DNA of 64,000 nt. It comes from an uncultured bacterium (GTDB taxonomy: Bacteria > Omnitrophota > Omnitrophia > Omnitrophales > Aquincolibacteriaceae). The position numbers and the translations under genes are program-made. Below the pieces are notes generated by a model that worked only from the letters and a program-made list of their open reading frames with translations, ran no database searches and was not told the origin of the DNA. Location of the stretch: NCBI GenBank assembly GCA_964581425.1, contig CAZOOM010000001.1, forward strand, positions 5,183 to 69,182, read 5' to 3'. Of the stretch, positions 703 to 22,800 are shown in pieces (the first letter of the stretch is position 1; the number at the start of each line of letters is the position of its first letter).

Positions 703-1467
703 TTAGAGCGACAAAAAGAGTCGAGTCGTTACTACGAGTTCCAGGTATTTCATGTCAAAAGGTTTCATGACATAAGCGTAAGCGCCGAGATCAGCAGCTT
801 TTTTAGCAATGGCCTCGTCCTGGAGTCCTGTGGCCATCACAATACCAATCTGAGGATTGATCTCCTTCATTTTCTTGAGGGTCAAGAGACCGTCCATTCC
901 CGGCATGGTGACATCTAATAAAACCATAGAAGGGTTCTCTGACTTGAGTTTTTCAAGAGCCTCTTCTCCGCTTTGAGCCATAATGGTTTCAAAGCCCTTG
1001 CTTTCAAAATAAAATTTAAGAAGCTGACGGATTTGTGCATCATCGTCAACAATTAACAGGCGTGGGGTGCCGGTATCAGCGCCTTCTTCCTTAGCTTGAC
1101 GTGGATCCACAAACGTTGCAACTCTTGAAATTTTTTGAAAAAGTTCAGGCAGCGGTGTGGAATAAGGCAGGATTTCAAGCGCACCGCTTTCCATAATATC
1201 TTTTTCAATTTCAGGGGTAATTTTATGAGCTAAAACAACTACCGGTACTTTTTCTCCAGCTGCTCGTGGCAGCGATCGAAGAAGTTTTGTGGGTGCTTCA
1301 GGAAATTTCCCAAGACCAAGAAGGATCACATCAGGTTTTTCCGTTTTAAGTAAATTGAATATCTCGTCTGGCTTTGTAATCGTAGTGACTTTCCAGCCTT
1401 TGCTTTGAAAAAAATCATAACACTGCTGCCTTTTTTCCATTTCCGGATCTAAAACAAAAATTTTCAT
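703..1467 (-). CDS. Response regulator with two receiver (REC) domains. The N-terminal REC is degenerate and the C-terminal REC is canonical.
   Basis: Second half has LLIVDDDAQIRQLL, the phospho-acceptor context LLDVTMPGMDG and a conserved Lys in YVMKPF. The first half, MKIFVLDPEMEKRQ...VILLGLGKFPE, lacks the acidic pocket. There is no output domain. Confidence 0.8.
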   Translation of the reverse strand: MKIFVLDPEMEKRQQCYDFFQSKGWKVTTITKPDEIFNLLKTEKPDVILLGLGKFPEAPTKLLRSLPRAAGEKVPVVVLAHKITPEIEKDIMESGALEILPYSTPLPELFQKISRVATFVDPRQAKEEGADTGTPRLLIVDDDAQIRQLLKFYFESKGFETIMAQSGEEALEKLKSENPSMVLLDVTMPGMDGLLTLKKMKEINPQIGIVMATGLQDEAIAKKAADLGAYAYVMKPFDMKYLELVVTTRLFLSL

Positions 1468-1480
1468 AAAAAATCCGATG

Positions 1481-1882
1481 TTAATCAGCGGCCATGGCGC
1501 CTAGGGTTTTAAGGAGAATTTCAAAATCAACTGGCTTGGTAATGTAATCAAAGGCACCCAGTGAGACAAGCTTACGCGCTTTTTCTTCATCATGCAGTCC
1601 GGTCACCATAATGATGTTAATGGAAGGGTCAAAATTTTTGAGTTGTTTCAGAACGTCTTCGCCAGAAATATCTTGGAGTCCGATATCGAGTAGAATGGTC
1701 AGAATGCGTGTACGTTGGATAGAAGTAAGTCTCTCAACCGCCTGAATGCATTGTTTCCCAGAAGGGCAAGTGACAACTTGATAGCCATCCATCTCGAGGC
1801 GCATTTTCATCAGATTCAGAATGGGTACTTCATCATCTACCACTAAGATGATTTTTTTTTCCATCGAGGGACCAGAATTCAT
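1481..1882 (-). CDS. Single-domain CheY-like response regulator.
   Basis: KKIILVVDDEVPILNLMK, LLDIGLQDISG (phospho-Asp) and DYITKP. No effector domain. It is tandem with the two-REC regulator and divergent from the hybrid kinase operon. Confidence 0.8.
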   Translation of the reverse strand: MNSGPSMEKKIILVVDDEVPILNLMKMRLEMDGYQVVTCPSGKQCIQAVERLTSIQRTRILTILLDIGLQDISGEDVLKQLKNFDPSINIIMVTGLHDEEKARKLVSLGAFDYITKPVDFEILLKTLGAMAAD

Positions 1883-2061
1883 AGAAAAATTATAGCAGTC
1901 CTTAGCAGCTTAAGCATCAAAATTTTTAATTTATGATATTACTGAGGTTTGGATGGGATAGGATGGGGCATCATTGATAAAAAAGTTGAGGTTATGGCCT
2001 GTTTAAGTCGATATTAAAACTAGTCTATAGGATTAATTTTAACAGGAATCAGGGGACTCTT

Positions 2062-5000
2062 TTGCACTACAAGCTCAGTAGCATCAAACTTCTTTGCTGG
2101 TTTCGATCTCTCCTTTTTTTCTTAATGTTGATGAATTCTTTTGCGTGGGGACAGGTATTTGCTGCCCAAAGTTCAGAAGTTAAATATTATAAAATAGGTA
2201 TCCTTGCTAACAGAGGCAAAGAAGAGTGTTTAAGCCGATGGAAAAGCACGGTAGACGTCCTGAATCAAAAAATCCCCGGAATGCACTTTGCCATCGTTCC
2301 GTTAGGTTTTGATGAAGTGGATAATGCGGTAGAAGGGAAGCAAGTCGATTTTGCTCTTACCAATGCTTTTTATCTTCCCAAATTTGAAAAATTTCACAAG
2401 GTTCAATCTTTAGTAACCCTTTCTACAACAGGCCCTGGCCCATTCGAGGGTATGTTAGGCGGTGTCATCTTCACTCGTGCCAACCGCCAGGACATTAACG
2501 AAATTCACGATTTGAAGGGGAAAAGTTTTGCAGCAACAGATTTTCAATCTGTGGGATGGATCGCTTCTTTAAGAGAACTTAGGCTTGCTGGGCTTCACGA
2601 GGGCCATGATTTGAAGGCCCTCGTTAAACTTGGAGAAAATAACCGTGTGGTTGAAGCCGTTCAAAAAGGTGAGGTGGATGCGGCCACGATTCGGACAGGA
2701 ATATTTGAACAGCTTGTCCAAGAAGGCAAGATTCGTATTGAGGATTTCAAGATTTTGCATCCACGAGAAAACCTTCCGTTTATTTGTTCCACACGCCTTT
2801 ATCCTGAATGGGTATGGATGCGTCTTGAACATGTTCCCATGTCAGAAGGAAATGAGCTGGCGAGAGTTTTGCTTTCTATTCCCAAAGAAAGCGAGGCAGC
2901 TCGCACTGGAAAATATCAGAGTTGGATGTTACCTCTTAATTCTGAATCCATTCACGATTGTTTAAAAGAGCTGCGTATTTCTCCATACGAAAGTTTTGGG
3001 ATCATCCAATTTCAAGAAGTTTTTCAAGCTTACTGGCCTTGGATGCTTGTCTTTGTCCTTGTGGTAACGGTTCTTATTATTATTTTATTTATTCTTTCCT
3101 TTGCCGGACGGGATGTTGAAGCGGCCCTGCAGCGTGAACGATCACCCTTTGCAATTTGGATCATTTTCTTTGTAATTGCAGGAGGTATTATTGCAAGCGT
3201 CAGATGGTACTATGTCGATCAGAAAAATTCAATTCGTGAAAATCACTTTGCGCTTCTTAATGCTTTATCTAATAACAGTCAACAACAGATTACGGAATGG
3301 TTTCACGAAATGAATACTCATTTAACTTCGATTACCCAAGATCCCATGGTTCGGAAGGCAACGCGTGATCTTGTGACGAGCTCATCGAAACTTGCAATGG
3401 ATCAAAATTTACCAGACTATTTTAAGGAATTTAACCGTCGTGAAAATTTTGATAATGCATCAGTGTTGGATATCCACGGTAAACTTCTTTGGACACTTGA
3501 TTTGAAGAAGTTTAATTTCATTCAATTGGCAGATTCCACCTCCGTACAAAGCCTGTTACAAAAGCAAAGCATAACGATTGTAGGCCCCGATGTATCGAAG
3601 CTGGCTCAAGGCGCTTTTATTGATGTTGCCATGCCTCTTTTAGATTCAGCTCTCCCGAATGTTCCGTATGGAATTTTAGTTTTGACAAATAATCTTGAAA
3701 AAAAGATTTATCCGCTACTTCGTGAGTGGCCTATGCCCACACATTCCGGCGAAATGATGCTAGCGAGGAGAGAGGGGGACAAAGTTGTTTTTATAAGTCC
3801 TTTAAGGTTTTCTAAAAGAGGAGAGGCTGTGAGGACTCTTTCAATGAATGAAACCAATCATCCTGCGGTGATGGCGGCTCGTGGCATGGAAGGAAACGTT
3901 GAAGGGGTTGACTATCGCAATGTGAAAGTACTTGCAGTGATCAAAAAAATATCAGAAACACCATGGTATTTAATCGCAAAAATGGATGAGAACGAAGTGT
4001 ATGAAGGATTGCAGGGTCGGCACGGTCTCATGATTGGCATGACCACAGGTTCGATTTTGCTTGTAGCTGCATTTCTCGCGCTTTTTATGAATCTGCGTGA
4101 TAAGCGTTTTTACAAAAAACTTTATCAGATGGAAAAAGACCTGAGCCGGAGAGATATTCAATTTTATTCTTTTGCGGAATCAAGTTTAGATCTTATTTAC
4201 CGGTTAAATCGTCAGAGGGTTGTGATCTATATTTCTCCGGCAATTCGAAAGATGCTGGGTTATAACGAAAGCCAAATCTTAAATAGGCGATTTTCAGATC
4301 TTGTTCATAGGGATTATGTTCTTACTATTGAGCGTGCTTATGAGGAGATTCTTAAAGGCAAACCAATCCGCAATTTAGAGATTAAAATCCTTAAAAAGAA
4401 CGGGGAATTCATTGAGGGGGAAGTCAATGCCAGCCCTATTTTTGAAGAAGATCAGGTGGTCCAAATTCAAGGTGTGATCCGAGATATTTCTGAGCGAAAA
4501 CATAGGGAAGAGGAGCTGAGGCAAAGCGAAGAAAAGTTCAAACTGCTAGCGGAGGGTCTTCAGGATGTTGTCATGCGTATTTCCGTGGGAGGGAAAATCG
4601 AATATTGCAGCCCTGCGGTCAAGGAATTTGGAGGGTATGATTCCCAAGAAGAAAAGGGAGAGTTTATTGGGAAATATTTTGCAAATCCTTTAGAGCTCGT
4701 TAAAACACTCAATTTAATGAAAGAGCTGACTATCAGCCGAAAACCTTCTACTATTTCGTTTTTTTATCGTTCTAAAAACACGCCTCCCTTTATGGTTGAA
4801 GTGTCTGGAAGACCCCTCATTAAAAACAATCAAGTGGTTTCATTTATGTGTGTGATGCGGGACATCAGTCAAAGGGTAAAAGCTGAAATGGAAATGAGAA
4901 AACGAGAAGCTACACTGAACACCATTACATCTGCTGCACAAGATGCGATTGTCATGATGGATGATCAGGGCTTGATCACTTTTTGGAATCCGGCGGCTGA

Positions 5001-6792
5001 AAAAATATTTGAGTGGACTCGTAGCGAGGCCCTTGGAAAAAATCTGCACCGCCTAATAGTGCCTGAACGTTATTGGAAGGACCATGAAAAGGCATTCCCG
5101 CAATTTCAGAATTCAGGAGAAGGAGCTGCTGTTGGAAAAAGACTAGAGTTATTCGGGAAGCGCAAGAGTGGGAATGAAATTACAGTGGAGCTATCGCTAT
5201 CTGCAATTCAAATTGAGGGGCATTGGAATGCGGTTGGCATTATGAGAGACATTACCGAACGTAAAATAGTTGAAGAAAAAATGCGATGGCAGCACACGGC
5301 TCTCGAATCCGCCGCCAATGGGATTGTGATTCTAAACGTTCATGGGCAAATCTTGTGGGTCAATCCGGCATTTCAAGCTTTGACAGGATATTCTTCCGAA
5401 GAAGCGATTGGGAAAAATCCTAGAATATTAAAATCCGGGAAACATGACGCCTCATTTTACAAGGATTTGTGGGACACCATTTTAGCTGGAAAAGTTTGGT
5501 GTGGAGAAATCATCAACAAACGAAAAGACGGCAGCTTTTATACGGAAGAAATGACGATCACGCCGGTTAAAACTGACACCGGGATCAGTCACTTTATTGC
5601 AATTAAGCAGGACATTACTTCTCGAAAACAATACGAAGAAAAAGTCCGCCGCTCGCAGCGAATGGAAAGCGTTGGCATGATGGCCGGAGGCGTGGCTCAT
5701 GATTTCAATAATATTTTGACTGTCATTGGCGGTTATCTCGATCTTGTCATGATGAACGAAGCTACGGTCAAAAAACACACACTAGAGCTTACAGAGATTA
5801 AAGAGGCTGTTCAACGTGCCAGTCAGCTTGTAAAACGATTATTAGTATTTAGTCGAAAAGAAGTGTCGGCGCCTAAGGTTTTTGAAATAAATGTTTTGAT
5901 TCAAGATCTTGAAAAAATGCTAACGCGGTTGATGGGAGAGCATATTGAACTTTCATTAAAGCTGAAACCAGGAATAGGCAATATCAAAGCCGATCCAAGT
6001 CAGGTTGAGCAAGTGATAGTCAATCTGGTAGTCAATGCCAGGGATGCCATGCCTAATGGAGGTAAAATTCTCATTGAAGCGAGTGACGTCATTTTAGATG
6101 AGGATTATTCTGAACATTATGTCAATATTCCGGCAGGCCATTATGTCTTGATCGCAATTCAAGATAATGGAACAGGAATGAGCGACGAGGTTAAGGAGCA
6201 CCTCTTTGAGCCGTTTTTTACAACAAAACCCAAGGGAAAAGGTACGGGGCTCGGATTAAGCATGTGTTTTGGAATTATGAGACAGAGCCATGGGCATATC
6301 AGTGTATACAGTGAGGTTGGGCATGGTACAGTCATCAAACTGTATTTCCCCAAAGTCCTTGAAACAGGCGAAGCTTTAATTTGTCAAAAAACAGATGATG
6401 TTTTTCCGTGTGGAAATGAAACTATTCTTGTTGTGGAGGACGAAGGTTCTTTGAGGAAATTAGCTGTGACCATTTTGTCTCAGCAAGGTTATGTTCTTCA
6501 TGAAGCCGAGAATGGGCTTAAAGCCTTGAGCTATATCGAGAGTCATCCAGAAATTAAGTGGGATCTGATTGTGACGGATGTGATCATGCCTCAAATGAAT
6601 GGAAGAGATTTAGCCGCAGAGCTTTGGAAGCGATATCCTAAACTTAAAATACTATTTATGTCAGGATATACTGATGACGCCATGGTTCGTGGCGGGATTC
6701 GTTCAGGAGCTATTCATTTTCTCCAGAAGCCTTTCACCCGCAGAAGTTTTTCTTTTAAGATCCGCGAGGTTCTTGATTCCAATAAATCATAA
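2062..6792 (+). CDS. Hybrid sensor histidine kinase. It has a signal peptide, a periplasmic PhnD/ABC-type phosphonate-binding-like domain, a TM segment, multiple PAS domains, HisKA, HATPase_c and a C-terminal REC.
   Basis: TTG start at 2062 (an alternative ATG is at about 2125). The N-terminus is hydrophobic. The periplasmic domain (IGILANRGKEE...TNAFYLPKFE...) resembles COG3221 solute-binding proteins. A TM helix (WMLVFVLVVTVLIIILFIL) follows, then about four PAS repeats. H-box AHDFNNILTVIGGY has its His near 5698. The G-boxes are DNGTGM and GTGLGL. REC is ILVVEDEGSLR...LIVTDVIMPQMNG with its Asp near 6576. Confidence 0.85.
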   Translation: MHYKLSSIKLLCWFRSLLFFLMLMNSFAWGQVFAAQSSEVKYYKIGILANRGKEECLSRWKSTVDVLNQKIPGMHFAIVPLGFDEVDNAVEGKQVDFALTNAFYLPKFEKFHKVQSLVTLSTTGPGPFEGMLGGVIFTRANRQDINEIHDLKGKSFAATDFQSVGWIASLRELRLAGLHEGHDLKALVKLGENNRVVEAVQKGEVDAATIRTGIFEQLVQEGKIRIEDFKILHPRENLPFICSTRLYPEWVWMRLEHVPMSEGNELARVLLSIPKESEAARTGKYQSWMLPLNSESIHDCLKELRISPYESFGIIQFQEVFQAYWPWMLVFVLVVTVLIIILFILSFAGRDVEAALQRERSPFAIWIIFFVIAGGIIASVRWYYVDQKNSIRENHFALLNALSNNSQQQITEWFHEMNTHLTSITQDPMVRKATRDLVTSSSKLAMDQNLPDYFKEFNRRENFDNASVLDIHGKLLWTLDLKKFNFIQLADSTSVQSLLQKQSITIVGPDVSKLAQGAFIDVAMPLLDSALPNVPYGILVLTNNLEKKIYPLLREWPMPTHSGEMMLARREGDKVVFISPLRFSKRGEAVRTLSMNETNHPAVMAARGMEGNVEGVDYRNVKVLAVIKKISETPWYLIAKMDENEVYEGLQGRHGLMIGMTTGSILLVAAFLALFMNLRDKRFYKKLYQMEKDLSRRDIQFYSFAESSLDLIYRLNRQRVVIYISPAIRKMLGYNESQILNRRFSDLVHRDYVLTIERAYEEILKGKPIRNLEIKILKKNGEFIEGEVNASPIFEEDQVVQIQGVIRDISERKHREEELRQSEEKFKLLAEGLQDVVMRISVGGKIEYCSPAVKEFGGYDSQEEKGEFIGKYFANPLELVKTLNLMKELTISRKPSTISFFYRSKNTPPFMVEVSGRPLIKNNQVVSFMCVMRDISQRVKAEMEMRKREATLNTITSAAQDAIVMMDDQGLITFWNPAAEKIFEWTRSEALGKNLHRLIVPERYWKDHEKAFPQFQNSGEGAAVGKRLELFGKRKSGNEITVELSLSAIQIEGHWNAVGIMRDITERKIVEEKMRWQHTALESAANGIVILNVHGQILWVNPAFQALTGYSSEEAIGKNPRILKSGKHDASFYKDLWDTILAGKVWCGEIINKRKDGSFYTEEMTITPVKTDTGISHFIAIKQDITSRKQYEEKVRRSQRMESVGMMAGGVAHDFNNILTVIGGYLDLVMMNEATVKKHTLELTEIKEAVQRASQLVKRLLVFSRKEVSAPKVFEINVLIQDLEKMLTRLMGEHIELSLKLKPGIGNIKADPSQVEQVIVNLVVNARDAMPNGGKILIEASDVILDEDYSEHYVNIPAGHYVLIAIQDNGTGMSDEVKEHLFEPFFTTKPKGKGTGLGLSMCFGIMRQSHGHISVYSEVGHGTVIKLYFPKVLETGEALICQKTDDVFPCGNETILVVEDEGSLRKLAVTILSQQGYVLHEAENGLKALSYIESHPEIKWDLIVTDVIMPQMNGRDLAAELWKRYPKLKILFMSGYTDDAMVRGGIRSGAIHFLQKPFTRRSFSFKIREVLDSNKS

Positions 6793-6820
6793 TCATTTTT
6801 GATGAAAGAGAATTGCCGCT

Positions 6821-8434
6821 ATGACTAGCCATTCAACTGATGTTCGAAGAGTATGGATGGTTTTTTGTTTTTTAATGATCTCTCCCACGGTTTATTCTGA
6901 AGTTGAATTGCTGGGAAGCAAAGGTAAAGTCATTAAAACCCAAGAAGACACTATTTCAATCACCCACAGCGGATATATGCGTCAAGATGTGATTATGATG
7001 AATAATCTCATCGATTTGGATTCTCAGCAAAAAAAAGATTCTATGGCCTATTGGGGAGGAGAATATTATTTTGACTTTGATGCCAAGTACAAAGAGTGGG
7101 TGGAGATTTACTCTAAATTTCAGCGCACAGGTCCTGCTTATGAAGATATGCTTTTGCTCGGGAGAAGGGATGTCAGTACGATTTATGGCCAAACCGATCG
7201 TTATCATGGAAAGCAATTTCTTCCTGAAGTCACGGAACTTTATCTGGATGCGAAAATTCCTTTGCGCGAGTATGCACTACGGTCAAAGACAGGGCTTTTT
7301 ACGCACTCTCTCGGACATGGGTTTGCAGGCGCTGGATATTTTCAGAATTATGGGCTTTCTTTGTATCATCCTGGAGAAATGGCGTCCTGGACTTTTTACT
7401 ATAACCGTCCTGATTGGAATAATCGAAAAATTTTAGGGCCTGTGATCGAGCAGGAAAAGCGCTTAGGACGCGGTTATCAAAAAACGGTAGCTGATTATTT
7501 TTCTTTAGATGCGATTTATTCTTGGGGGAACTTATCCTCAAGTGAGTCTGAAGCTGAATTTTCAGGGTCGTTTCAGCCTTATGTCACTTTGCTTTCTGAT
7601 CGAACGGGTATCGGGAATCGCAGTAGCCTTTTTGCTGTCCAGACGGAACAAGATCTATTAGGCACCTTAGGGGTAGATCTTAGAACAAAATGGAAACGTC
7701 TTTCATTGGATTTTGAAATGGCAAGAAATTTTGGGCAGGCCAAAACCAAAGGTTTTGCCGCGGATGGGGATGGGCTATTAGGAAGCCAGAATATTTCTCA
7801 TAAGGGATACATGATGTATTCTGAAATGAAGCTGGATCTTCATGAGTGGTGGATCACGCCTCGAACAAGTCTGATGCTTGCATCAGGAAATAAATTAGGT
7901 GGATCTGAAAATGGTTTGATTCAAGGGTCCGCGAATCGTGCTTTCAGTAATTACTCTCCGTTAAATACAAATCTATGGGATTCGATTTACCAGCCTAGGG
8001 AAAATGGCCCTTTAGCTGCTATGGGAACTGGATGGGGAGCAAATAGTGGTATTTTACGGCCAGGAACTTTTGGGGATCCCTATATTCTTGAAAATCTGAT
8101 TGTCCCGAATTGGGGGATTGATATCACGCCCTTTAAAAAATGGACATTTTCTTTGGATTGGTGGTATTTGGCTGCTATGCAGCATGGTGTTGGCACATGG
8201 GAGGGCGAGTCGGTTAAGCTTTCAAAAGATCTTGGAAATGAGTGGGATTTGAATGTGACCTACAAGATGACAGATTATATTGAGTGCAGCGTCAGTGCGG
8301 GATATTTTATGCCAGGGAAATATTATCGTGCTTATCGTGATGATGCGGGTTCGTCTTTCAGTCCATTTGTGACGGGATTAGGAGATACCAATAGTGCATT
8401 TTATGGAGAGATGACGTTTACGATTAAATACTGA
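6821..8434 (+). CDS. Secreted protein, probably an outer-membrane beta-barrel (porin-like).
   Basis: Signal peptide MTSHSTDVRRVWMVFCFLMISPTVYSEVE. Strands of alternating hydrophobic and aromatic residues run throughout, and there are many Gly and Tyr. The C-terminus ends in an aromatic residue (FTIKY), typical of BAM-targeted barrels. It lies between two kinase genes, 27 nt and 13 nt away. The functional family is not resolved. OprO/P-like or alginate-export-like are both possible. Confidence 0.5.
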   Translation: MTSHSTDVRRVWMVFCFLMISPTVYSEVELLGSKGKVIKTQEDTISITHSGYMRQDVIMMNNLIDLDSQQKKDSMAYWGGEYYFDFDAKYKEWVEIYSKFQRTGPAYEDMLLLGRRDVSTIYGQTDRYHGKQFLPEVTELYLDAKIPLREYALRSKTGLFTHSLGHGFAGAGYFQNYGLSLYHPGEMASWTFYYNRPDWNNRKILGPVIEQEKRLGRGYQKTVADYFSLDAIYSWGNLSSSESEAEFSGSFQPYVTLLSDRTGIGNRSSLFAVQTEQDLLGTLGVDLRTKWKRLSLDFEMARNFGQAKTKGFAADGDGLLGSQNISHKGYMMYSEMKLDLHEWWITPRTSLMLASGNKLGGSENGLIQGSANRAFSNYSPLNTNLWDSIYQPRENGPLAAMGTGWGANSGILRPGTFGDPYILENLIVPNWGIDITPFKKWTFSLDWWYLAAMQHGVGTWEGESVKLSKDLGNEWDLNVTYKMTDYIECSVSAGYFMPGKYYRAYRDDAGSSFSPFVTGLGDTNSAFYGEMTFTIKY

Positions 8435-8449
8435 TTTGAGAGGGAAGCT

Positions 8450-10600
8450 ATGAAGGTCTATAAAAAAGTAGGGCTTGTTTTTTTTGCTATCGCAGTTATT
8501 TTGATGATTTCTGTGTCTTGGATGGGGTATATGGTTCAGAAACAGGCGAAAAGAGTTTTTTGTGAACGCAGTACAGAAATCGAAAAGTTATTTAAAAATA
8601 TTGTCAAGATGGAGGGTGAAAAACACCGGATATTTGTTTATGACTACACCTATTGGGATGAGATGATTGCATTTGTCAAAACACCAGATCCTGTTTGGGG
8701 TATTCAAAACATTGATGAAGGCATAAAAACTTACGAAGTTGACATCGCATGGGTGTGTCGGACAGACGGATCTATAGTCTATTCAAAATCAAAATCCAAT
8801 TTTAAATCTCTGCCTCTAAAAGCAGCTGAGAACGTAGCTGCGTTCGACAAGAGCCGCTTAACACATTTTTTTGTGGTAGATACCAGAGGCGTGATTGAAA
8901 TACAAGGGGCGACTATTCATCCCACCAATGACCCGGAAAGAAAAACTCCGCCTCAAGGTCTTTTTTTTGCGGGTAGGCTATGGGATCAAGCTCTGCTTCA
9001 GAACTTATCGGAGTTAACGGCGTCGGATGTTCGACTAGTTGTTGGAGAAGAAATCTTTGAGCGCGCGAAGAAGCCTGTTTCTTTGCCATCAACTATTAAT
9101 TTTTCTATGCCCCTTTCAGACATCAACGGAGCGCCTGTGGCGAGGCTCGATTTCATACGAAAATCCCCAATTTTGGAGCAAATTCATCAAGAATCAAAAA
9201 ATCAATTTTATATGTTGATTCTTGTTTTAACTCTTCTCTGGGTTCTAGTACTTTATTTACTTTATTGTTGGATTAATCGGCCGTTGCTTGCGATTTCCAA
9301 CGCTCTTCGTGATGAAAATCCATCGCGGCTATCTGAGTATCAAAAGAAAACGAACGAATTTGGTGAGATCAGTAGATTAATTCAGAAGTTCTTTCTGCAG
9401 AAGGAAGAATTGGTTCGTGAAATCTCTGAAAGAAAAAGATTTCAAGCTTCGATGGTGGAGTCTCAAAAACTTGAGGCTCTTGGAAAAATGGCTGGGGCCA
9501 TTGCTCATGACTTCAATAATCAGTTGACCACGATTCGTGGGTTTTGTGAGCTTTTGATGACGGAGATAGATCCTAAGACTTCAATGGGTGGATACGTGAA
9601 AGAAATTCAGGCAGCATCGGAACGTTCTACTGCTTTTACTAGCCAACTTTTGAGTTTTAGCAGTAAACATATTGTCATCAAGCAAGTGATGAATCTTAAT
9701 CAATTAATATCGGGGCTTATCACTATGCTTAATGTGACCATTGGAGAGAAATATCATCTTGAAGTGCAGTTGTCTCCGGATTTATATGAATGTGAAGTTG
9801 CTCAAGCACAAATTGAACAAGCGATTATTAATATTACTATGAACGCAAAAGACGCCATGCCAAATGGTGGAGAAATCAACATCACTACCAAGAATGTAAG
9901 CGTGAGTCAGGAGATGTCCGAATGTTCACAATTCCATGAAATTCATCCTGGCGATTACGCGGTGATTGAAATTTCAGATAACGGAATCGGACTGAGCGAA
10001 GAAGTTAAAAAACATCTTTTCGAGCCTTTTTTTACTACGAAAGAAATTGGAAAAGGAGCAGGTTTGGGTTTGGCGTCGGCTTTTACCAACGTTCGGCAGC
10101 ATGATGGGTTAATACAGGTTGAAAGCCAGCTTGGACAGGGAGCTACTTTTAGGATTTATTTACCCAAAAAGAATATGAGTGTAGCTATAGAAGTACCCAC
10201 GAAGCCTTTGGTTGAAACACTCGGAGGAAAGGAAACAATTTTATTGGCAGAAGATGAAGAGTCAGTTCGTAAAGTGATTGAAACTATGTTGGCATCAAAA
10301 GGTTACCGAGTATTTTCAGCTCACTGTGGCAAGCAAGCTCTTGATATTGCACAGAGTTCAACGGAAACGATTCACATTCTTTTGACGGATATGGTTATGA
10401 GTGATATGAAGGGCGTTGAACTAGGACAGAAAATTAAATCCATTCAGCCTCAAATCAAAGTACTTTATATGTCAGGATACGCTAGTTTAGATGAAGAGGA
10501 TCAAGCGAGGCGGGAGATGCCCAATTTTCTACAAAAGCCATTTAGTCAGCAGGTGCTCATGGCGAAAATTCGTGAAACTTTAAAACTTCATTCTTCGTAG
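8450..10600 (+). CDS. Hybrid sensor histidine kinase with an N-terminal TM, a periplasmic sensor domain, a second TM, HisKA, HATPase_c and REC.
   Basis: TM1 is VGLVFFAIAVILMISVSWMGYMV and TM2 is MLILVLTLLWVLVLYLLYCWI. The periplasmic domain between them is about 250 aa. H-box AHDFNNQLTTIRGF has its His near 9505. The ATP lid is DNGIGLSEEV...GKGAGLGL. REC is ILLAEDEESVR...LLTDMVMSDMKG. Confidence 0.85.
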   Translation: MKVYKKVGLVFFAIAVILMISVSWMGYMVQKQAKRVFCERSTEIEKLFKNIVKMEGEKHRIFVYDYTYWDEMIAFVKTPDPVWGIQNIDEGIKTYEVDIAWVCRTDGSIVYSKSKSNFKSLPLKAAENVAAFDKSRLTHFFVVDTRGVIEIQGATIHPTNDPERKTPPQGLFFAGRLWDQALLQNLSELTASDVRLVVGEEIFERAKKPVSLPSTINFSMPLSDINGAPVARLDFIRKSPILEQIHQESKNQFYMLILVLTLLWVLVLYLLYCWINRPLLAISNALRDENPSRLSEYQKKTNEFGEISRLIQKFFLQKEELVREISERKRFQASMVESQKLEALGKMAGAIAHDFNNQLTTIRGFCELLMTEIDPKTSMGGYVKEIQAASERSTAFTSQLLSFSSKHIVIKQVMNLNQLISGLITMLNVTIGEKYHLEVQLSPDLYECEVAQAQIEQAIINITMNAKDAMPNGGEINITTKNVSVSQEMSECSQFHEIHPGDYAVIEISDNGIGLSEEVKKHLFEPFFTTKEIGKGAGLGLASAFTNVRQHDGLIQVESQLGQGATFRIYLPKKNMSVAIEVPTKPLVETLGGKETILLAEDEESVRKVIETMLASKGYRVFSAHCGKQALDIAQSSTETIHILLTDMVMSDMKGVELGQKIKSIQPQIKVLYMSGYASLDEEDQARREMPNFLQKPFSQQVLMAKIRETLKLHSS

Positions 10601-10632
10601 TAAGCCAGGATTTTAAAGTAGAGAAGCGTTGA

Positions 10633-11718
10633 TTACTTTAGGATAATCTTAGCTGGAGGAAATCCGTTAAAGTTGGGGACAGCGCTTGCGCAGGAATAAG
10701 CCCCGATATTTTTCACGTAGACCACATCATTCATATAAAGTTCAGGAATTTCAGCGTCTGTAGCCAGAGTATCAAAAGAATCACACGTGGGTCCTGCCAG
10801 ACAACTTAAAAATTTCTGCCCTCGTCTTAGGGTTTTAAATTCGTATTTGCAGTGATCGAAAACCAGCCCTGAAAAATCCTGATAAACTCCGTCATTGATG
10901 TAGTAATAGTTTTTGTTATTACGGAAGGTACGGCCGACGACCTGAGTGACTAAGAGTCCTGCTGGTCCGGAGAAAAAACGTCCGGGTTCTGCAATAAAAT
11001 GGACTTTTTTGTCAAATTTGAGATGGCGGATATGTTTGCGAATCTCTGCAGCCATACGCTCAAAATTGATTCCGATTTCTCCGTCAAAATGGGGGATAGG
11101 GAATCCTCCGCCGATATCTACAATGCGTAGCAAAATCCCATTTTCCTTTGCCTCTTTAAAAATTCCAGATGTGATTTCAAGGGCCTGAAGATAAATCTCA
11201 ACATTTTTAGATTGAGAACCCACATGAAAACTAACGCCCACAGGGTGCAGACCAAGTTGCTTGGCTTTCTTCAGCATCAGAAAGGCGACTTCAGGGTCGG
11301 CACCAAATTTAAGGGAAAGATTGACCTGGCTTTTATCATTTTCAACTTTAAGACGGACAATGACATGAGCCCCGGGATAATGTTCCGCGATTTTATAAAG
11401 CTCGGGCTCGTTATCAAAAGTCATGAGTTTCACGCGCATGCGCTTTGCGGCCACAATGTCATCCACAGATTTGATGGTATTGGCAAAAATGATTTGATTC
11501 GGCTTGGCGCCGAGACGAAGCACTTGCCGCATTTCCCCAGCGCTTGCCACATCAAAACATGAGCCTAGTTTTAAAAAGGTCTGGATAATTTTAGGGTGAG
11601 GGTTTGATTTGATGGCGTAATAAGGAGTAACGTTTGGAAGCGCTTTTTGAAAGCGGCGAAACTGTTTTTCTAAAATCCCTTTACGAATGACCATAAAAGG
11701 GGTCTTGTGTTTTTTCAT
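10633..11718 (-). CDS. PLP-dependent group IV decarboxylase of the ornithine/arginine/lysine decarboxylase family. It is most likely an ornithine decarboxylase supplying putrescine.
   Basis: PLP-Lys motif YYAIKSNPHPKI. Gly-rich motif RIVDIGGGFP. Also FHVGSQ. The track ORF extends to 11862 and would overlap the hss stop at 11762 by 100 nt. Starts at 11718 (MKKHKTPFMV) or 11808 are more plausible. Confidence 0.8.
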   Translation of the reverse strand: MKKHKTPFMVIRKGILEKQFRRFQKALPNVTPYYAIKSNPHPKIIQTFLKLGSCFDVASAGEMRQVLRLGAKPNQIIFANTIKSVDDIVAAKRMRVKLMTFDNEPELYKIAEHYPGAHVIVRLKVENDKSQVNLSLKFGADPEVAFLMLKKAKQLGLHPVGVSFHVGSQSKNVEIYLQALEITSGIFKEAKENGILLRIVDIGGGFPIPHFDGEIGINFERMAAEIRKHIRHLKFDKKVHFIAEPGRFFSGPAGLLVTQVVGRTFRNNKNYYYINDGVYQDFSGLVFDHCKYEFKTLRRGQKFLSCLAGPTCDSFDTLATDAEIPELYMNDVVYVKNIGAYSCASAVPNFNGFPPAKIILK

Positions 11719-11761
11719 TAAAGTCCGGATGAGATTCTCTATTCCGGAGGGGTCAGCAGAC

Positions 11762-13273
11762 TTAGACTTTAACAGTTTCGGGGTGCTGAGAAGGCCGTTT
11801 GAGGGCATGGGCTCGCATTCTTTCCCGGTGATCGACGAGGAAAGTCGTAAACTGCCAGACATCTTCGTCTACAGGCCGGGGAATGTCGTACTTGGTGAAT
11901 TTAGTGTTAAGACTTTTTAGAGGAGTCCAATCAACGGCTTCGGAAATAAAGGGCTTGATGTAAGGCATAGCTGCCTTGATCACAAAATCATGATCCAAAT
12001 CATCTGGAACACAAACACCACTGCGAGGATTTTGGAGCATCCAAAGTGTGGCACCCAAAACACCTGCAGCCACCTGCATGGTCGTTGCTTGTTGATGAGG
12101 GATCAATTTGCGAGCCGAATGAATATCAAGAGTGCTGCCACACCACCAAGAATTGAAATCATGACCCATTAAGAGGACGCCAAGTTCATCGCGTCCATCG
12201 ATAATTTCATCAGACATGATACGCTGTCTGTCTTGCATGACAAACTGCCGCATTTCAAGTTCGTGCAAAGAGTTAATAGCTGAATCCGAAGGGCAGTAAG
12301 CGTAATGGACAGTAGGGCGGTAAATGGCTTTGTCATTTTCCCAAACTGTTAATTTATCGGAAATGCTGAAGGCTTCTCCGTGGCGGATGACCATACCCGT
12401 GATTTCTCCGCAAGGCACCCAGGACCTTACCCAGGTTTTCATTCCAATGGAGCTTAAGCAGATTTGATTCTTAGGCCCTTCTTTGTGAAAAACAGCGCTT
12501 TCAGGAATATATTTTTCGTGCGTTCCCCACCCAAGTTCTGCCGGAGCCACTCCTTCTTCATAAAAACCTTCAATGCTCCAGGTGTTTACAAACTCATTTA
12601 ACTCTTTGGGCTGTTTAGTGATTTGTGTATCGCGTTCGCTGATGTGAATAACTTTGACTCCGCTGATCATGGCTAAATGAGCAAAATCCAGATCTTTGAG
12701 AGCTCGCTCTAGATCTTTGCGCCTTGGATCACGTGTTTTTTCTTTGAGGATCTTTTCCGCGATTTGGATCAGTGCATATTTGGTAAAGTGAGACACTAAA
12801 CCAGGATTGGCCCCGTGATCCACGACCGCAGTAGTGCCTTCATTATCGCCCCATTTCTCAATCATGCGGCGAAGCTCCATCTGACGAGTATAAAGCGTAT
12901 ATTTTGTAGGATCATTCCTCTGGCTATCCTTATAAGGATCCCATTCCTCAACCGAGGTATTCATGTAGAGGACTTTGTTTTTGCGACACCAGTCAAGGAT
13001 AGCCCGGCATTCAATATTCCAGGCTAAATCAATGATCATGTCACCCGGTCCGGCATATTTACTCAGCAGCTGCTTGTAATTCTCTGGGGTGATGCGGTCT
13101 CGGACATAGTGGACGCCTTTTCTGATGGCATCTTGAACTCGCTTACGATTATCAACAAAATCCAGAATGGTGATTTTACTGGCAGGCATCTCGAGGTGTT
13201 TGAGAAGCATTGGGATGGCGCACTGGGCAACAGATCCGCAGCCGATCACTAACAGTCTTCCATTAAATTTCAT
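11762..13273 (-). CDS. hss: Homospermidine synthase (NAD-dependent).
   Basis: The N-terminal Rossmann segment LLVIGCGSVAQC is present. Strong matches to bacterial HSS blocks NTWSIEGF, PAELGWGTHE, HYAYCP, DGRDELGVLL and TDWTPL. The gene is about 500 aa. Confidence 0.85.
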   Translation of the reverse strand: MKFNGRLLVIGCGSVAQCAIPMLLKHLEMPASKITILDFVDNRKRVQDAIRKGVHYVRDRITPENYKQLLSKYAGPGDMIIDLAWNIECRAILDWCRKNKVLYMNTSVEEWDPYKDSQRNDPTKYTLYTRQMELRRMIEKWGDNEGTTAVVDHGANPGLVSHFTKYALIQIAEKILKEKTRDPRRKDLERALKDLDFAHLAMISGVKVIHISERDTQITKQPKELNEFVNTWSIEGFYEEGVAPAELGWGTHEKYIPESAVFHKEGPKNQICLSSIGMKTWVRSWVPCGEITGMVIRHGEAFSISDKLTVWENDKAIYRPTVHYAYCPSDSAINSLHELEMRQFVMQDRQRIMSDEIIDGRDELGVLLMGHDFNSWWCGSTLDIHSARKLIPHQQATTMQVAAGVLGATLWMLQNPRSGVCVPDDLDHDFVIKAAMPYIKPFISEAVDWTPLKSLNTKFTKYDIPRPVDEDVWQFTTFLVDHRERMRAHALKRPSQHPETVKV

Positions 13274-13591
13274 GATCGCTAAAGGGCCTTTCGATAAAAA
13301 AAATTAAAATGATTTTTTTGCAAACAGGAAAATTCTATCACAATTCTTTACAAGGTCAACGAAGAAGCGCGATTTTTAGCCATATTTTTGCATTTGATAA
13401 ATCATCAAACCGAAAAAAATCAAAAAATGTGACCAATGTTAGTTTTTCTTTCGATTTTATGCCGCGAATTCAAAAAATCGATTTTTGAAACAACGAAATT
13501 TTTTTTAAAACTAAATTTCGAATGAGATGATGAAAAAATACAAAAGATGAAACGAGCTCATTTGGAAATGAAGAACAAACGAAAAGGCCAG

Positions 13592-14338
13592 TTAGCTTTT
13601 TGGGAGATTGACGCCGATAAAATTGCGAGCTTTTTTGATTTGCTCAGAAGTCAGCGTGTGTTGGAGGCCGGGAACAAGATCTAATTCTACAGGGATGCCA
13701 ATTTTTTTGCAGGTTTCTACAAATTCATTCGCTTTTTCTGAGCGCCCAGTATCATCTGTTCCAATCGAGATAAAAAAGGAAATCGGCATATAGATTTGTG
13801 GCTCATCGTAGTATTCAGCCCCGATGGCTGCTACTGAGCGCACCAGGCCGGGACGCCATAAAGCAAAACGAATGGCAAATTGTGCACCGGAGGAATAACC
13901 AACCAGGGAAAGTCTGTCAGTTTTAATGGCATGTTTTTTTGATATTTGATTCAGAATTTCAAGCAAAGCAGTTCCTGACCAGCTGGAAGGAAATTGGTAG
14001 CTTGTTTGATTGTCCCAATCCTTTTCATTATGCTCAAAACGTAGACTTAATACTGTTACATTATTTTTCGCAGCAAAAAGTAGCCAGTCTGGAGACACGC
14101 GGTCTTGTCCTGATGAAGTCAGTGCATTAACGACAATGACTACGGATTGCGGGGACGCTGAAAAAGAAGGAAGTCTGAAGTACTGGTATTTAACCGTCTC
14201 ACTTTTACCGTCATGCTCAACTTGAATTTTACCCTTGCTAACACCTAAAAATTGAATTGCGGTAATAAGGGCAAAAATAATAATGAGAAAAAGTAAAAAA
14301 AATTCTAAGGAGAGATTTTTATAAGCTCGAGTATTCAT
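13592..14338 (-). CDS. Membrane-anchored or secreted alpha/beta-hydrolase (esterase/lipase-like).
   Basis: N-terminal hydrophobic anchor FFLLFLIIIFALITAIQFL. Nucleophile elbow GYSSG (GxSxG). A His and Asp are positioned downstream. Confidence 0.6.
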   Translation of the reverse strand: MNTRAYKNLSLEFFLLFLIIIFALITAIQFLGVSKGKIQVEHDGKSETVKYQYFRLPSFSASPQSVVIVVNALTSSGQDRVSPDWLLFAAKNNVTVLSLRFEHNEKDWDNQTSYQFPSSWSGTALLEILNQISKKHAIKTDRLSLVGYSSGAQFAIRFALWRPGLVRSVAAIGAEYYDEPQIYMPISFFISIGTDDTGRSEKANEFVETCKKIGIPVELDLVPGLQHTLTSEQIKKARNFIGVNLPKS

Positions 14339-15394: not shown

Positions 15395-16675
15395 TTAGGT
15401 CCGATGTAGCTCAGCTAGCAAATCATCTTCGGTTGGTAGTGACTTGGCAGCATCTGGAGCTTCCATTTTGGAAGTGGAAACTGGCTCAGGGGAAGGCGGC
15501 GGATCTTTAGGAAGGAGGGTGAAGTTTTTGGCTTCAAGAAAGCCTTTGGAATAGCCTCCGATTCTTTCTTGTAAAAAGACAAAATTAATTTCCCGGATAT
15601 CTGCCTTTTTTGAAAAATTCAAAGGAAAATCAAAAACTGCCCAATCTTTTTCAATGCGCTTTACTGAAAAGGCTCTCAAAACACCACTGGCTGATTTTAG
15701 CTCAATTCTGAAATTTTCAGGAAAACCGCGTTCATGTGGATTGCGTCTGGCCATGAATCGCAGAGTCTTAAATTGCGACATATCCAGGTCACGCGTTTTC
15801 ATATAAAGGCCTGAGAAGGAACCTACAGGGAATACGTCGTACTCCATTTCCAAATAAACTTCACCGCTTAAGGGGTCTAACTTGAATTCTCGATTGGCAT
15901 AGCCGATTTTGGGAGTGTAAAAAGTCCCGTGATCAAAAACATAATCAAACAGATTTCCAGCTTTTTTTGATAAATCCAGCTGAGCTGCTTCCGAAGCTGC
16001 AGATTTAGGAATCAGTTCGTAGGCTTCACTAATTTGACGCCAGTCGCTCTGGGAAATTTTTTCAGCAAAGGGTTTTGATGGAGACGACTGAATGACCACC
16101 TTTTCCATGGATCGGATAGTGCCGTAAAATTTGCCGCGAAGATCCGTTAAGCTGGCAGTTCCTTTTAACATCCCCAGAAAGCCTTCATTCATCCCTGTTT
16201 GAGTGGCTGCAAGCGTCATATTGTTTCGACTCACGGTTTTAACAGAGCCCACAATAATCTCCAGGGGATGAGGGGAAATAGAGTCTTCGGAGGCTGCAAA
16301 GAGCGTACCCTTGCGCAGTTCTGTGCGAAAAGCAGGTTCTGCATTTTTTGCTTTTTGAGCTTTTGGGAAATAAAGCTCAGATTCAGGTTTTAAACGCATA
16401 CGGCTGACATCAGGAATTTGGAAATCAACCTCGCCGTCTTTCCCTGTTTTTAAGATATCGCCTGGGTTAAAAGCATAACCTCGTGTGCCTTTGATCCAAA
16501 TGTTTTGCGAAGCAGAAAAAATTTGGGCGTCTCCAAAAACATTTTCAAGCAAATAACCCGGAAGAGATTCTGACGAGGTGTTCGAGTTTTGATTCAGATA
16601 AAAGACAGCGGCTAAAATTCCGAAAGAAATGATAAGCGCTGGAATGGAAATCGGAGATTTTGACTTGAGTTTCAT
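15395..16675 (-). CDS. Secreted or membrane-anchored protein with an N-terminal FecR-like domain and a C-terminal domain I do not recognise.
   Basis: Signal anchor MKLKSKSPISIPALIISFGILAAVFYL. The stretch IWIKGTRGYAFNPGDILKTGKDGEVDFQIPDVSRMRLKPESELYF fits the FecR/PF04773 pattern. The C-terminal tail is proline-rich. Confidence 0.5.
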   Translation of the reverse strand: MKLKSKSPISIPALIISFGILAAVFYLNQNSNTSSESLPGYLLENVFGDAQIFSASQNIWIKGTRGYAFNPGDILKTGKDGEVDFQIPDVSRMRLKPESELYFPKAQKAKNAEPAFRTELRKGTLFAASEDSISPHPLEIIVGSVKTVSRNNMTLAATQTGMNEGFLGMLKGTASLTDLRGKFYGTIRSMEKVVIQSSPSKPFAEKISQSDWRQISEAYELIPKSAASEAAQLDLSKKAGNLFDYVFDHGTFYTPKIGYANREFKLDPLSGEVYLEMEYDVFPVGSFSGLYMKTRDLDMSQFKTLRFMARRNPHERGFPENFRIELKSASGVLRAFSVKRIEKDWAVFDFPLNFSKKADIREINFVFLQERIGGYSKGFLEAKNFTLLPKDPPPSPEPVSTSKMEAPDAAKSLPTEDDLLAELHRT

Positions 16676-19899: not shown

Positions 19900-22800
19900 T
19901 TACTCATGTGCTCCAACCAGCTTTCTGGAAGGGGTTGATGGCTTCTCTGTTTTGACAGATGCAGCTTCAGGAACTTTCTTAAGCGGACTTTTTGAAATAT
20001 CACGTTTCACTTTTGTGATCTTTAAATTTCCGCGAGGTTTATCCAAGTCACTCGGAAGGACGAGCTGATTTCGGATTAACGTTGCGCCTGCAACCCCTTC
20101 AAAAGCCTGTCGCAGCATCCAGCCAGCGGCGCCGGTGTAACCATTCCAAATCATGCGGCCAAGTTCAAATGTAGTAAGAAAGTCAGCCGGCTGTTTGTTC
20201 GGTTGTCCGCCGTAAATTTCAATTTCCTGAGGTGTGACGTGAGCAATCGGAGAAACTTTTTGCCAGAGCCGATAAGCGGTTGCTCGGTACTCTTCAGCTT
20301 TTGCGTGATCCTTGCGCGCTTCAAATTCTTCAGCGAGTAATCTTGCGGCACGCACGAGCCACTGAACACCGTGACAGTACATTCCATTTTCACGGACACC
20401 TTCAGGATATTTGCTGCTCCGTCCGAGATAGGGTTTGCTGTCTTCGCGAAGCGCGGGCCATCCGAGAAGGATACAACTGCCGCGTTCGAGAACTTGAAGT
20501 GCGGTATTGAACACCGTAACCGCGCGTTCGAAATTCATGCCGGCCATGACAGCCCATGCCGCGGTCAAGGCATCGATTTCCCAAATGCCGCTGTCTTTGA
20601 CACCGATTTCCGTACCATCATCATGAAAGGCACGAAGATAGCGGTCGCCACGCCAAGTGGTTTCCAGACACTCTTTAAGTGCTTCCAGTTTTTGAACATA
20701 AAATGCTTTTTTCTGTGCGCCTTCTTTACGTTCAATAATAGGAACCATTTCTTTTAGGATGTAATAGAGGAAAAATCCGAGCCACACACTTTCACCGTGA
20801 CCTTCGCCTCCGATTTCATCGAGTCCGTCATTCCAGTCTCCGGTCCCCATTAACGGAAGACCGTGTTTGCCGGTGCGTTTTTTGATCACAAGATCAATCG
20901 AACGCATGCAATGTTTGTAAAGCGTATCACCGCGCGTGGTCCGATGATAAAGATGCCCCCAGCCGCCTTTATTTTTCGGAAGCTGAGCAAACGGAAACTC
21001 CGACATGACGTAAGATGCCATCTCATCCAGAATCGTGTCATCACCCGTCATGCGAATATATTCCACAGCAGCCCAAGCGAGCCAGAGCGGATTATCCGAA
21101 GCGTGTGAGCGGCAAGAAAATGCCGTGCGTCCGTCCACGAGCGTGAAGAACCAGTGAAACACATCGCCTTCTAAGAACTGCTGAGAGGCATGCAGAAGGA
21201 TTTGCTTCCGTGCCAATGCTGGATCCATCCAAATCAGATTGATCGTGTCCTGCAACTGATCGCGGAAACCGTAAGCGCCGCTGGTTTGATAAAAACCTTT
21301 GCGTGCCCAGATGCGTTCGGCGAGTGCCTGATATTTGAGCCAGTTTTGATAGCGGTCAAACTCAGGTTGATTGGTTTCCACTTTGGCGGATTCCATAAGC
21401 GCGAGCCACCACTGGCGCGTGCTCTCAAGACTCTTTTTCGCATTTTCCAGATTTTTATATTTTTGAACAATGCGGGCAGCATCTTTTTCAGAATCCGTTT
21501 GACCAAGTACCACAGCCAATGTGAATTCCTGATGCGACGGAATTTCAACCGAACCAAGGAAAGCAGCAATTTGTCCGGGATCCTTCGATTCTTTTTCATC
21601 CGGATGTCCCATTTCAACTAAGTAAGGGTGCGAGGGTCCGCGTCCGTCTCCAAAAAATCGTCCGCGTTTAGTTTCGACGAGTTCCGGATTCACAGACATT
21701 GAGGCAAAGGCCCAGCCATTTCTAAAAATATTTCTCGGGTTTGAGAAATAAAGTGCGTTCAAAGCCTTGTCATGTTTCGTGACAAGCGGGCCTGAACGTT
21801 CCGGCTGAAAGGAAAGAACCATCTGAAAATAAGGAGCCACACGAAGCCTGCGTGTTTGGTTTCCTGTATTTTTGATGCGCAAAAGGTAAATGCCAGTAGG
21901 TTCATCAGTAGGAACAAAAACCGTAAGCTCTGTGGACAAGGTTCCTTTAGACATGCGGAACACTGCTGTCCCGTCCACGCTGAAATCACAATCATGTTTG
22001 GCACTCACATCATTAATGGGGTGATACGTGGGAGAAAACCATTCCTTCTGATCTTGGTCATAAAGATAAATGGCCTCAGTAGGAATTTCTTTCGTGACCG
22101 TATCCGGCCAATCTGGCGTGAGACGATTTTGCTGTGAGTTTCCGTTACACGAAGTGTGAAGTCCGCGATTCGTGACCATGACTGAATGCGTGGGGTTTGA
22201 CATCCCGTGGTCAAAAGGCCGAGGAGTAAACGGAGTCAGCACGCGCATGGTATTGCCTTTATCCAGAAACTCAAAATAAGGTTGCGGAGTTTTGGGATAA
22301 ACTTCTCCGTGTCCGATTAAGAGGCTGCGTTTTTTGCCAGCCGCTGGCACGGATTTAGGAGCCAGAGGTTTTAAGAATTTTTGGATCAAATCAAGGGCAA
22401 TGCCTTTGTTTTTGGAGTAACCTATGACGAGTTTCATGCTCACAGATGCTTGAGCGCCTACCGGGGCATTGACCATCAAGCTTCCAATAGGGTCAAAGGT
22501 TGGGCAAGCGGGCGTGTCCTTTGCAGGCAGAAAATCCAAAGTCTCAAGCGCTCGAGGAGTCCAGACACTTTTCCCACGTCCGATGAAATCAACTCGGCCT
22601 GTGAGGAATCCTTCCGGAGCGAGATCCGAGGCCATGAATCCCATGGACTTCGTGCTCTTTTGCCAAGAAATAATGGCATTCGCTCCGCTCACATATTCCA
22701 TTTCAGGATAAAGACGAGCGTACTGAGTATGGAATCGGTCGTGCATCCAACCGTTTAAAACCCACTCAAGATACGAAACGACTTTGAGCTGCCGCGGTTT

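Follow-up and report, generated by a model that had tools for sequence, protein, structure and literature searches.

The 64,000-nucleotide stretch of DNA analyzed here (hereafter the window; contig CAZOOM010000001.1 of assembly GCA_964581425.1, positions 5,183 to 69,182) comes from an uncultured bacterium of the phylum Omnitrophota, family Aquincolibacteriaceae. It encodes a signaling locus in which the gene for a secreted outer-membrane β-barrel lies between the genes of two hybrid histidine kinases, here termed HK1 and HK2, with two response regulators consisting of receiver (REC) domains encoded divergently upstream. Comparison with related loci shows that the conserved unit is the barrel together with the CHASE4 sensor of HK2, rather than the PhnD-like kinase HK1 together with the barrel. 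A first-pass annotation, made from the letters of the window, had proposed that the barrel provides an entry route for a ligand sensed in the periplasm. The tie of the barrel to periplasmic sensing is upheld by conserved synteny; its partner, however, is the downstream CHASE4 kinase, and the PhnD-like kinase accompanies the barrel only in the most closely related locus, L001. The barrel-CHASE4 association is solid, and from it we infer a mechanism: the locus would constitute a branched two-component or phosphorelay system, in which the barrel serves as a dedicated entry channel for the cue of the CHASE4 domain. We give this reading a probability of about one half. In the lineage of the window a TtrS-like kinase with two sensor domains and the receiver-only proteins have been added to this core pair.

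The barrel protein

The product of the middle gene matches the Pfam family Alginate_exp (PF13372) with 27.3 bits (cut-off 25.2, E 2e-6) over residues 252-508 only, and precomputed matches to the same family are present on most of its homologues. An AlphaFold2 model built from 62 homologues has a predicted local distance difference test score (pLDDT) of 89 and a predicted template modeling score (pTM) of 0.85; it is nearly all β, apart from an N-terminal signal helix, and the sequence ends in the C-terminal β-signal FTIKY. The top match of this model in a Foldseek search is AlgE, the alginate export porin of Pseudomonas aeruginosa (E ~1e-14, with ~12% identity), followed with nearly as good scores by the 18-strand substrate-specific channels MOMP, Occ/OprD, ChiP and LamB. 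Judging from the model, the middle gene is predicted to specify an AlgE-like outer-membrane barrel of the 18-strand class. Pfam, AlphaFold2 and Foldseek therefore agree on a β-barrel, one of the points on which the first-pass annotation had let its proposal stand or fall.

The modeled protein has no plug, periplasmic domain or N-terminal extension, residues 22-39 forming a low-confidence linker. A non-β insert of 71 residues (355-425) is conserved and holds many of the residues that are invariant in the family. A tree of the barrels places the CHASE4-linked ones in clades of their own, apart from a large clade lacking this linkage. All insertions are common to linked and unlinked barrels, which differ at ~10 conserved positions; a clade-specific insertion that could act as a docking element in the CHASE4-linked barrels was accordingly considered and rejected, there being none relative to the unlinked paralogues.

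Conservation of the barrel-CHASE4 pair

A scan of genome contigs with the single barrel protein gave no match, whereas a scan with the barrel alignment recovered 36 genomic relatives, all from Omnitrophota or related metagenome-assembled genomes (MAGs). The barrel homologues as a whole are almost all from Omnitrophota MAGs and include one from the complete genome of Candidatus Velamenicoccus archaeovorus, in which the barrel-CHASE4 pair occupies L017 5962-9712. In the linked clades a CHASE4 gene lies immediately downstream in 16 of the 19 loci that could be assessed, at a distance of 15-126 nt and with barrel identities down to 32%. Among all downstream genes examined, 15 of 40 carry CHASE4, and a profile search indicated that every CHASE4 open reading frame (ORF) in the barrel loci is the gene directly after the barrel. 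In the distant loci HK1 is gone and the CHASE4 gene still stands directly 3' of the barrel. The upstream neighbors are mutually unrelated, comprising gyrase, peptidase, TPR, ShlB-type, AsmA, PKD, GT4 and OmpA-LysM proteins and another kinase.

Two other neighborhoods of the barrel family were observed. In the unlinked clade a gene of ~168 codons for a CxxCxxCC protein (PF03692) is found ~330 nt downstream, at constant distance, in 11 loci (L026, L028, L030, L033, L034, L037, L038, L039, L041, L042 and L044), and is a different conserved neighborhood of the barrel paralogues. In L003 (2553-11587) a barrel of the linked clade has no CHASE4 gene downstream and is instead overlapped by a PAS-GGDEF gene; the same cluster contains a CHASE-PAS protein, a 1142-aa protein of unknown function and two single-REC genes. 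This barrel keeps a signaling context even without CHASE4.

To approach the pairing from the other side as well, metagenomes were scanned with an alignment of the CHASE4 domain; this returned 80 loci, 71 of which have enough upstream sequence to be assessed. An AlgE-like barrel is encoded directly upstream in 14 of these 71. Another 10 (L045, L047, L048, L051, L061, L074, L099, L110, L115 and L119) have in the same position, 2-8 nt upstream, a gene for a small secreted barrel of 230-260 aa with a signal peptide, an alternating β-pattern and a C-terminal GxEF motif. These small barrels score 19-23 bits against Gcw_chp (PF09694; cut-off 24) and 15.8 bits against the NCBIfam model TIGR02001 (cut-off 47). 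Several of their homologues carry PF09694, and the name 'TorF family putative porin' is given by NCBI to homologues that include a Thermodesulfobacteriota protein. When contigs were collected by means of the small barrel, a CHASE4 kinase gene followed at 1-3 nt in two of three independent contigs (L125, 5001-7421; L127, 5001-8343). The contigs with small-barrel/CHASE4 pairs range from 38 to 65% in GC content. Homology between the AlgE-like and the small TorF-like barrels was rejected (hhalign probability 12%). Upstream proteins of ~540 aa in other CHASE4 loci were likewise rejected as divergent barrels, being identified by Pfam as CstA, GroEL, Cache sensors, TPR proteins and FtsH.

The CHASE4 kinase HK2

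HK2 had been described as a hybrid kinase with a periplasmic domain of its own, and this holds: hydropathy and Pfam give the order transmembrane helix (TM) at residues 8-30, periplasmic CHASE4 domain at 31-252, TM at 255-277, HisKA, HATPase_c and REC. The CHASE4 match (PF05228) reaches 59.2 bits against a cut-off of 26.2 over residues 57-196, and the alignment of the domain contains the conserved motifs DYTYWDE and HPTxDxERxTPPQGYFFAGRLW. The H-box, AHDFNN, is at H353. Sequence searches of the PDB with the CHASE4 domain, as with the PhnD-like domain of HK1, returned nothing useful.

A kinase with two periplasmic inputs

For HK1 the earlier description of a hybrid kinase with a PhnD-like periplasmic domain followed by PAS domains is supported by Pfam, which gives Phosphonate-bd (PF12974, 109 bits), four PAS domains, HisKA, HATPase_c and REC. 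That description left out a second periplasmic domain. The full order is a signal/TM segment, the PhnD/TtrS-like domain, a TM, a loop, a TM, a Cache-like domain and a further TM ahead of the cytoplasmic modules, with the helices after the signal/TM segment placed by hydropathy at 325-349, 363-383 and 656-678. Since the last two of these flank residues ~386-655, that stretch is predicted to be periplasmic. It matches dCache_1 in Pfam with 27.9 bits, below the cut-off of 45, and its assignment as Cache-like is tentative.

The TtrS model NF040750 scores 187.9 bits over residues 41-346 (cut-off 750), the sensor domain alone being aligned. When the first 700 residues of HK1 were used as query, the best 120 of 446 relatives were all PF12974 domains fused to kinase, GGDEF or HD-GYP outputs; these 120 span only ~45% of the query and none of them covers domain 2. 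As a sensor, the PhnD-like domain is thus of a common and already known kind; what is unusual is the second domain in tandem with it. The H-box of HK1, again AHDFNN, is at H1213, and the transmitters of HK1 and HK2 are 39% identical.

The receiver-only proteins

The REC domains fused to HK1 and HK2 retain D57, T/S87 and K109, and the HisKA H-box and HATPase_c are present in both kinases. The single-REC protein likewise retains all catalytic residues, including the phospho-acceptor. In the 254-aa protein the earlier claim of two REC domains and no output domain stands, with the qualification that only the C-terminal REC is canonical, retaining all five residues (D, D, D, T and K). Compared with CheY, the N-terminal REC has the changes D57 to G, D13 to P, T87 to A and K109 to Y, and is predicted to be a pseudo-receiver devoid of the phospho-acceptor aspartate.

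Orthologues of the two-REC protein (49% identity) and of the single-REC protein (49%) occur in L001, and a further single-REC orthologue in L003 (48%). Full-length homologues of the two-REC protein are found near barrel-CHASE4 pairs in L113, L090, L106 and L007; because they recur near these other pairs, membership of the two-REC protein in the pathway is supported. The suggestion that the two regulators are plausible phosphorelay partners gains from both observations, namely their presence in the same cluster in L001 and the two-REC homologues beside other barrel-CHASE4 pairs. The earlier remark that no Hpt gene is visible in the window agrees with the present searches: a six-frame translation of the 64 kb contains no Hpt-like motif, and no Hpt domain was found among the proteins scanned with hidden Markov models (HMMs), small ORFs having been only partly included in that scan. 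An Hpt or ChpT-like gene could lie outside the window.

Organization of the locus

All five ORFs of the first-pass annotation were recovered where it had placed them (Table 1), and the spacing it gave for the forward-strand genes (27 and 13 nt) needs correction to 28 nt between HK1 and the barrel and 15 nt between the barrel and HK2. Terminators between these genes would have spoken against the proposed operon, and a consensus scan showed no terminator-like site in either gap; over the whole region there are 15 such sites against 10.1 ± 3.3 in shuffled sequences, which is not an enrichment. With operon-like spacing and no terminator-like sites, HK1, the barrel and HK2 look like one operon, as had been suggested. 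HK1 starts with TTG, preceded at 7-8 nt by the Shine-Dalgarno sequence AGGGGA. The divergent intergenic region presumably holds promoters; a consensus scan listed no sigma-70-like site in it, and an Rfam scan of the entire window, this region included, gave no family match.

Table 1. Features of the signaling locus, with positions counted in the window
Feature	Position	Strand	Basis or remark
Two-REC response regulator, 254 aa	703-1467	-	No output domain; Pfam Response_reg, two stretches
Single-domain CheY-like response regulator, 133 aa	1481-1882	-	Pfam Response_reg, 82 bits
Divergent intergenic region between regulators and kinase operon, 179 nt	1883-2061		Sequence reading
HK1, hybrid histidine kinase, 1576 aa	2062-6792	+	Pfam, NCBIfam, hydropathy, H-box
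HK1 periplasmic domain 1, PhnD/SsuA/TtrS-kind type-II binding-protein fold, aa 45-279	2194-2898	+	PF12974
HK1 periplasmic domain 2, Cache-like (tentative), aa 399-639	3256-3978	+	Weak dCache_1, hydropathy
Secreted outer-membrane β-barrel, 537 aa, predicted AlgE-like fold, 18-strand class	6821-8434	+	Pfam, AlphaFold2, Foldseek
HK2, CHASE4 hybrid histidine kinase, 716 aa	8450-10600	+	PF05228, hydropathy, H-box
HK2 periplasmic CHASE4 sensor domain	8540-9205	+	Alignment with conserved motifs

The closest relative of the locus, L001, has a barrel 65% identical to that of the window and shares its flanks: a pseudouridine synthase gene borders the cluster at one end, and at the other end stand genes for a decarboxylase and a saccharopine-dehydrogenase-like protein. 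It is the only locus in which HK1 and both regulators recur together. In the L001 cluster (3014-13850, corresponding to 703-10600 of the window) the regulator genes run in the same direction as those of the kinases, whereas in the window they are inverted. L001 has in addition a gene for a PF04392 substrate-binding protein, which precedes and overlaps the start of HK1 and has no homologue in the window. The barrel is the best conserved protein of the two clusters, at 65% identity against 44-49% for the others; HK1 is 47% identical overall and 29% identical in the Cache-like domain 2.

The flanking pair in the window (10633-13273, reverse strand), an ornithine/diaminopimelate-type decarboxylase and the saccharopine-dehydrogenase-like gene, is convergent with the end of HK2 and is probably a carboxy(nor)spermidine-type polyamine pair. 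The longest-ORF calls of the two genes overlap by ~100 nt, and the decarboxylase probably starts further in. Sensing of polyamines by the locus, suggested by this adjacency, was dropped as an explanation, as among the annotated loci the genes adjoin the cluster only in L001.

Farther away in the window, a 2456-aa ORF (19900-27270, reverse strand) has in its C-terminal third a GH94 supersandwich and catalytic domain (residues 1683-2395) and resembles cyclic β-1,2-glucan synthases and glycan phosphorylases; its N-terminal ~1680 residues have no Pfam match at E 1e-4, and neither does a 699-aa ORF at 29257-31356 (forward strand). Genes for a nitrite/sulfite reductase (NIR_SIR; 34370-36493, forward strand) and an NrfA-type cytochrome c552 (39875-41239, reverse strand) indicate a potential for nitrite or sulfite reduction in this organism.

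Proposed mechanism and alternatives

In the mechanism that we favor the barrel would be a specialized paralogue of the porin family common in the phylum, which, made together with HK2, would admit the cue bound by CHASE4 through the outer membrane to the periplasm. Two further periplasmic inputs would be added by HK1, through its TtrS/PhnD-like domain, probably for an anionic solute, and through its Cache-like domain. Both kinases would autophosphorylate on the histidine of the AHDFNN H-box and pass the phosphate to their own REC domains, from which the signal would reach the single-REC protein and the REC-REC protein, be it directly or by way of a phosphotransferase whose gene lies elsewhere. 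The role of the barrel in transport, the identity of the ligand and the partners in phosphotransfer are steps that we infer. That two barrel families without detectable homology occupy the same position argues for a function generic to barrels, namely permeation. Taken together with the lack of an insertion restricted to the linked barrels and of any periplasmic extension, it therefore makes an entry route a simpler explanation than a docking partner.

Several observations weigh against this proposal. Roughly 80% of the related CHASE4 loci lack an AlgE-like barrel and about two thirds lack an upstream barrel of either family; the CHASE4 sensor thus does not generally need a barrel, as most of its loci have none upstream. 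Conversely, the barrels of L003, L010 and L014 belong to the linked clade and have no CHASE4 neighbor. Co-transcription of HK1, the barrel and HK2 is read from their spacing, and no Hpt- or ChpT-like transferase that would link the hybrid kinases to the receiver-only proteins was found in the window. The Alginate_exp match of the barrel barely exceeds its cut-off, and a profile search of the PDB gave no sequence-level match to any solved structure. The conserved insert at residues 355-425 may face the periplasm or may line the pore. Finally, the organism is uncultured.

It is conceivable that the barrel is an output of the system instead, a porin under its control in an autoregulated operon that delivers no signal, in the manner of TorR and torF or of the EnvZ/OmpR porins. 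In Shewanella oneidensis the torF promoter is reported to depend on TorR and on trimethylamine N-oxide (TMAO) (PMC9948233), and the small barrels are weakly TorF-like; furthermore, Omnitrophota possess many barrel paralogues without a link to a sensor. Yet the barrel gene always lies upstream of the sensor, close to it and on the same strand, instead of under a promoter regulated separately, and the regulators of the window have no DNA-binding output. This explanation also overlaps with that of an entry channel, as an induced porin can admit its own inducer. We regard it as improbable, albeit the foremost of the alternatives. Slightly less probable is that the barrel acts as a physical co-sensor, which contacts CHASE4 and relays an event at the surface such as contact with prey or a surface, envelope stress or ligand occupancy, comparable to FecA-FecR or to RcsF, its outer-membrane protein partner and IgaA. 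Close and conserved gene pairs often encode interacting proteins, and here 15-126 nt separate the sensor gene from that of an AlgE-like barrel and 1-8 nt from that of a TorF-like one; the barrel, moreover, is the best conserved protein of the locus, and surface sensing would suit the ultra-small, host-dependent lifestyle inferred for many Omnitrophota in PMC10066038, which also describes the phylum as one without isolated members. Such contact is harder to reconcile with a barrel that lacks a plug, a periplasmic domain and an N-terminal extension, and that shares all its insertions with the paralogues unlinked to CHASE4. The occurrence of two families without detectable homology in one position is difficult to square with a single specific interface, and the sensor, an inner-membrane-anchored domain of ~220 aa, would need to span the periplasm. 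The broadest form of this idea is more doubtful again: that porin-like barrels, AlgE-like in Omnitrophota and TorF-like elsewhere, report the passage of a ligand or contact with a surface straight to the CHASE4 kinase, and so form a previously unrecognized device. If true, CHASE4 would be redefined as a barrel-coupled sensor domain.

Export of a polymer through the barrel, as of alginate through AlgE, with the kinases regulating or monitoring secretion, is suggested by AlgE being the best structural match and by the name of the Pfam family. It appears very unlikely, given that neither in the window nor in those related loci that were examined does a glycosyltransferase, copolymerase or AlgK/AlgX-like gene adjoin the barrel gene, and that the low identity to AlgE goes with nearly equal scores for the import channels Occ, ChiP, LamB and MOMP. 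The least credible explanation is that the adjacency merely reflects chance or phylogenetic inertia. The AlgE-like examples are indeed confined to a single phylum, and near relatives have their gene order in common through descent; however, the pair persists down to barrel identities of 32-38% while the other neighbors change, and the adjacency recurs with a second, unrelated barrel family on contigs covering the whole range of GC content given above. A dedicated channel for the CHASE4 cue remains the reading that we prefer.

Comparison with known systems

A porin coupled to a two-component system that senses the periplasm is a known theme; the pairing of an AlgE-like barrel with CHASE4 appears to be a new form of it. 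In the ChiP/ChiS-CBP system of Vibrio and in the SusC/D channels with hybrid two-component systems of Bacteroides, an outer-membrane channel admits the molecule that is sensed in the periplasm. In these systems the channel mainly feeds catabolism, and the barrel families and sensor domains are other ones; no catabolic genes stand beside the barrel-CHASE4 pair. In Shewanella, TorF with TorS/TorT/TorR is likewise a barrel tied to a two-component system for a periplasmic solute. The barrel of the window belongs to a different and larger family, and its sensor is CHASE4 instead of TorS/TorT. AlgE, although alike in fold, differs from the present barrel in most of its sequence and in that the latter is paired with a sensor kinase. 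The pore of AlgE, moreover, is electropositive and is blocked by loops L2 and T8. Neither next to the barrel gene in the window, the rest of which was partly annotated, nor in related loci is there an alg8, alg44, algK, algX or other exopolysaccharide gene.

The first-pass annotation saw in the locus an echo of FecA/TonB-type signaling. FecA-FecR-FecI is indeed another case of an outer-membrane barrel genetically coupled to an inner-membrane transducer, but the resemblance does not go further. The FecA type is a 22-strand barrel with a plug and a TonB box, features that the present barrel does not share: it has no plug, N-terminal signaling domain or clade-specific insertion, and neither an anti-sigma factor nor an extracytoplasmic function (ECF) sigma factor is encoded in the locus. 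The only FecR-like match in the window is in a 426-aa protein (15395-16675, reverse strand; 23.6 bits against a cut-off of 24), ~5 kb from the locus and with no visible link to it.

HK1 has in common with the TtrS/ThsS-type kinases a PhnD-like PF12974 domain followed by a transmitter. Unlike TtrS, it has no adjacent LuxR-type TtrR or ttrBCA genes, its neighbors being the receiver-only proteins, the pseudouridine synthase and the polyamine genes. As in HK2, the CHASE4 domain lies between two TMs in the P. aeruginosa sensors PA0847/PA14_53310 and PA2072/PA14_37690; these proteins are c-di-GMP enzymes, whereas HK2 is a hybrid kinase. The ligands reported for P. aeruginosa CHASE4 domains are haem and copper (PMC13277305), the only CHASE4 ligands that we found in the literature, both from Pseudomonas proteins; CHASE4 therefore binds small periplasmic ligands. 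In that paper the outer membrane figures only in the reference list, with an article on OprC, and neither operons nor genomic context are treated. A full-text literature search recovered no paper linking CHASE4 with porins or outer-membrane barrels, and a search for Gcw_chp recovered none at all. The titles and abstracts retrieved on the alginate export family and on Omnitrophota histidine kinases contain nothing about a barrel-CHASE4 pairing.

Implications

CHASE4 is a widespread domain, and a linked channel gene offers a handle on it, as the selectivity of the channel should mirror the ligand of the sensor. The pair predicts that perception of the signal depends on a dedicated porin. With this result a specific role is proposed for one of the paralogues in the main Omnitrophota β-barrel family, in a lineage that has combined it with the uncommon double-sensor design of HK1, a binding-protein and Cache-like tandem. 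Since TorF-like barrels are paired with CHASE4 kinases in other lineages, it may be possible to study the idea in an organism that is easier to work with.

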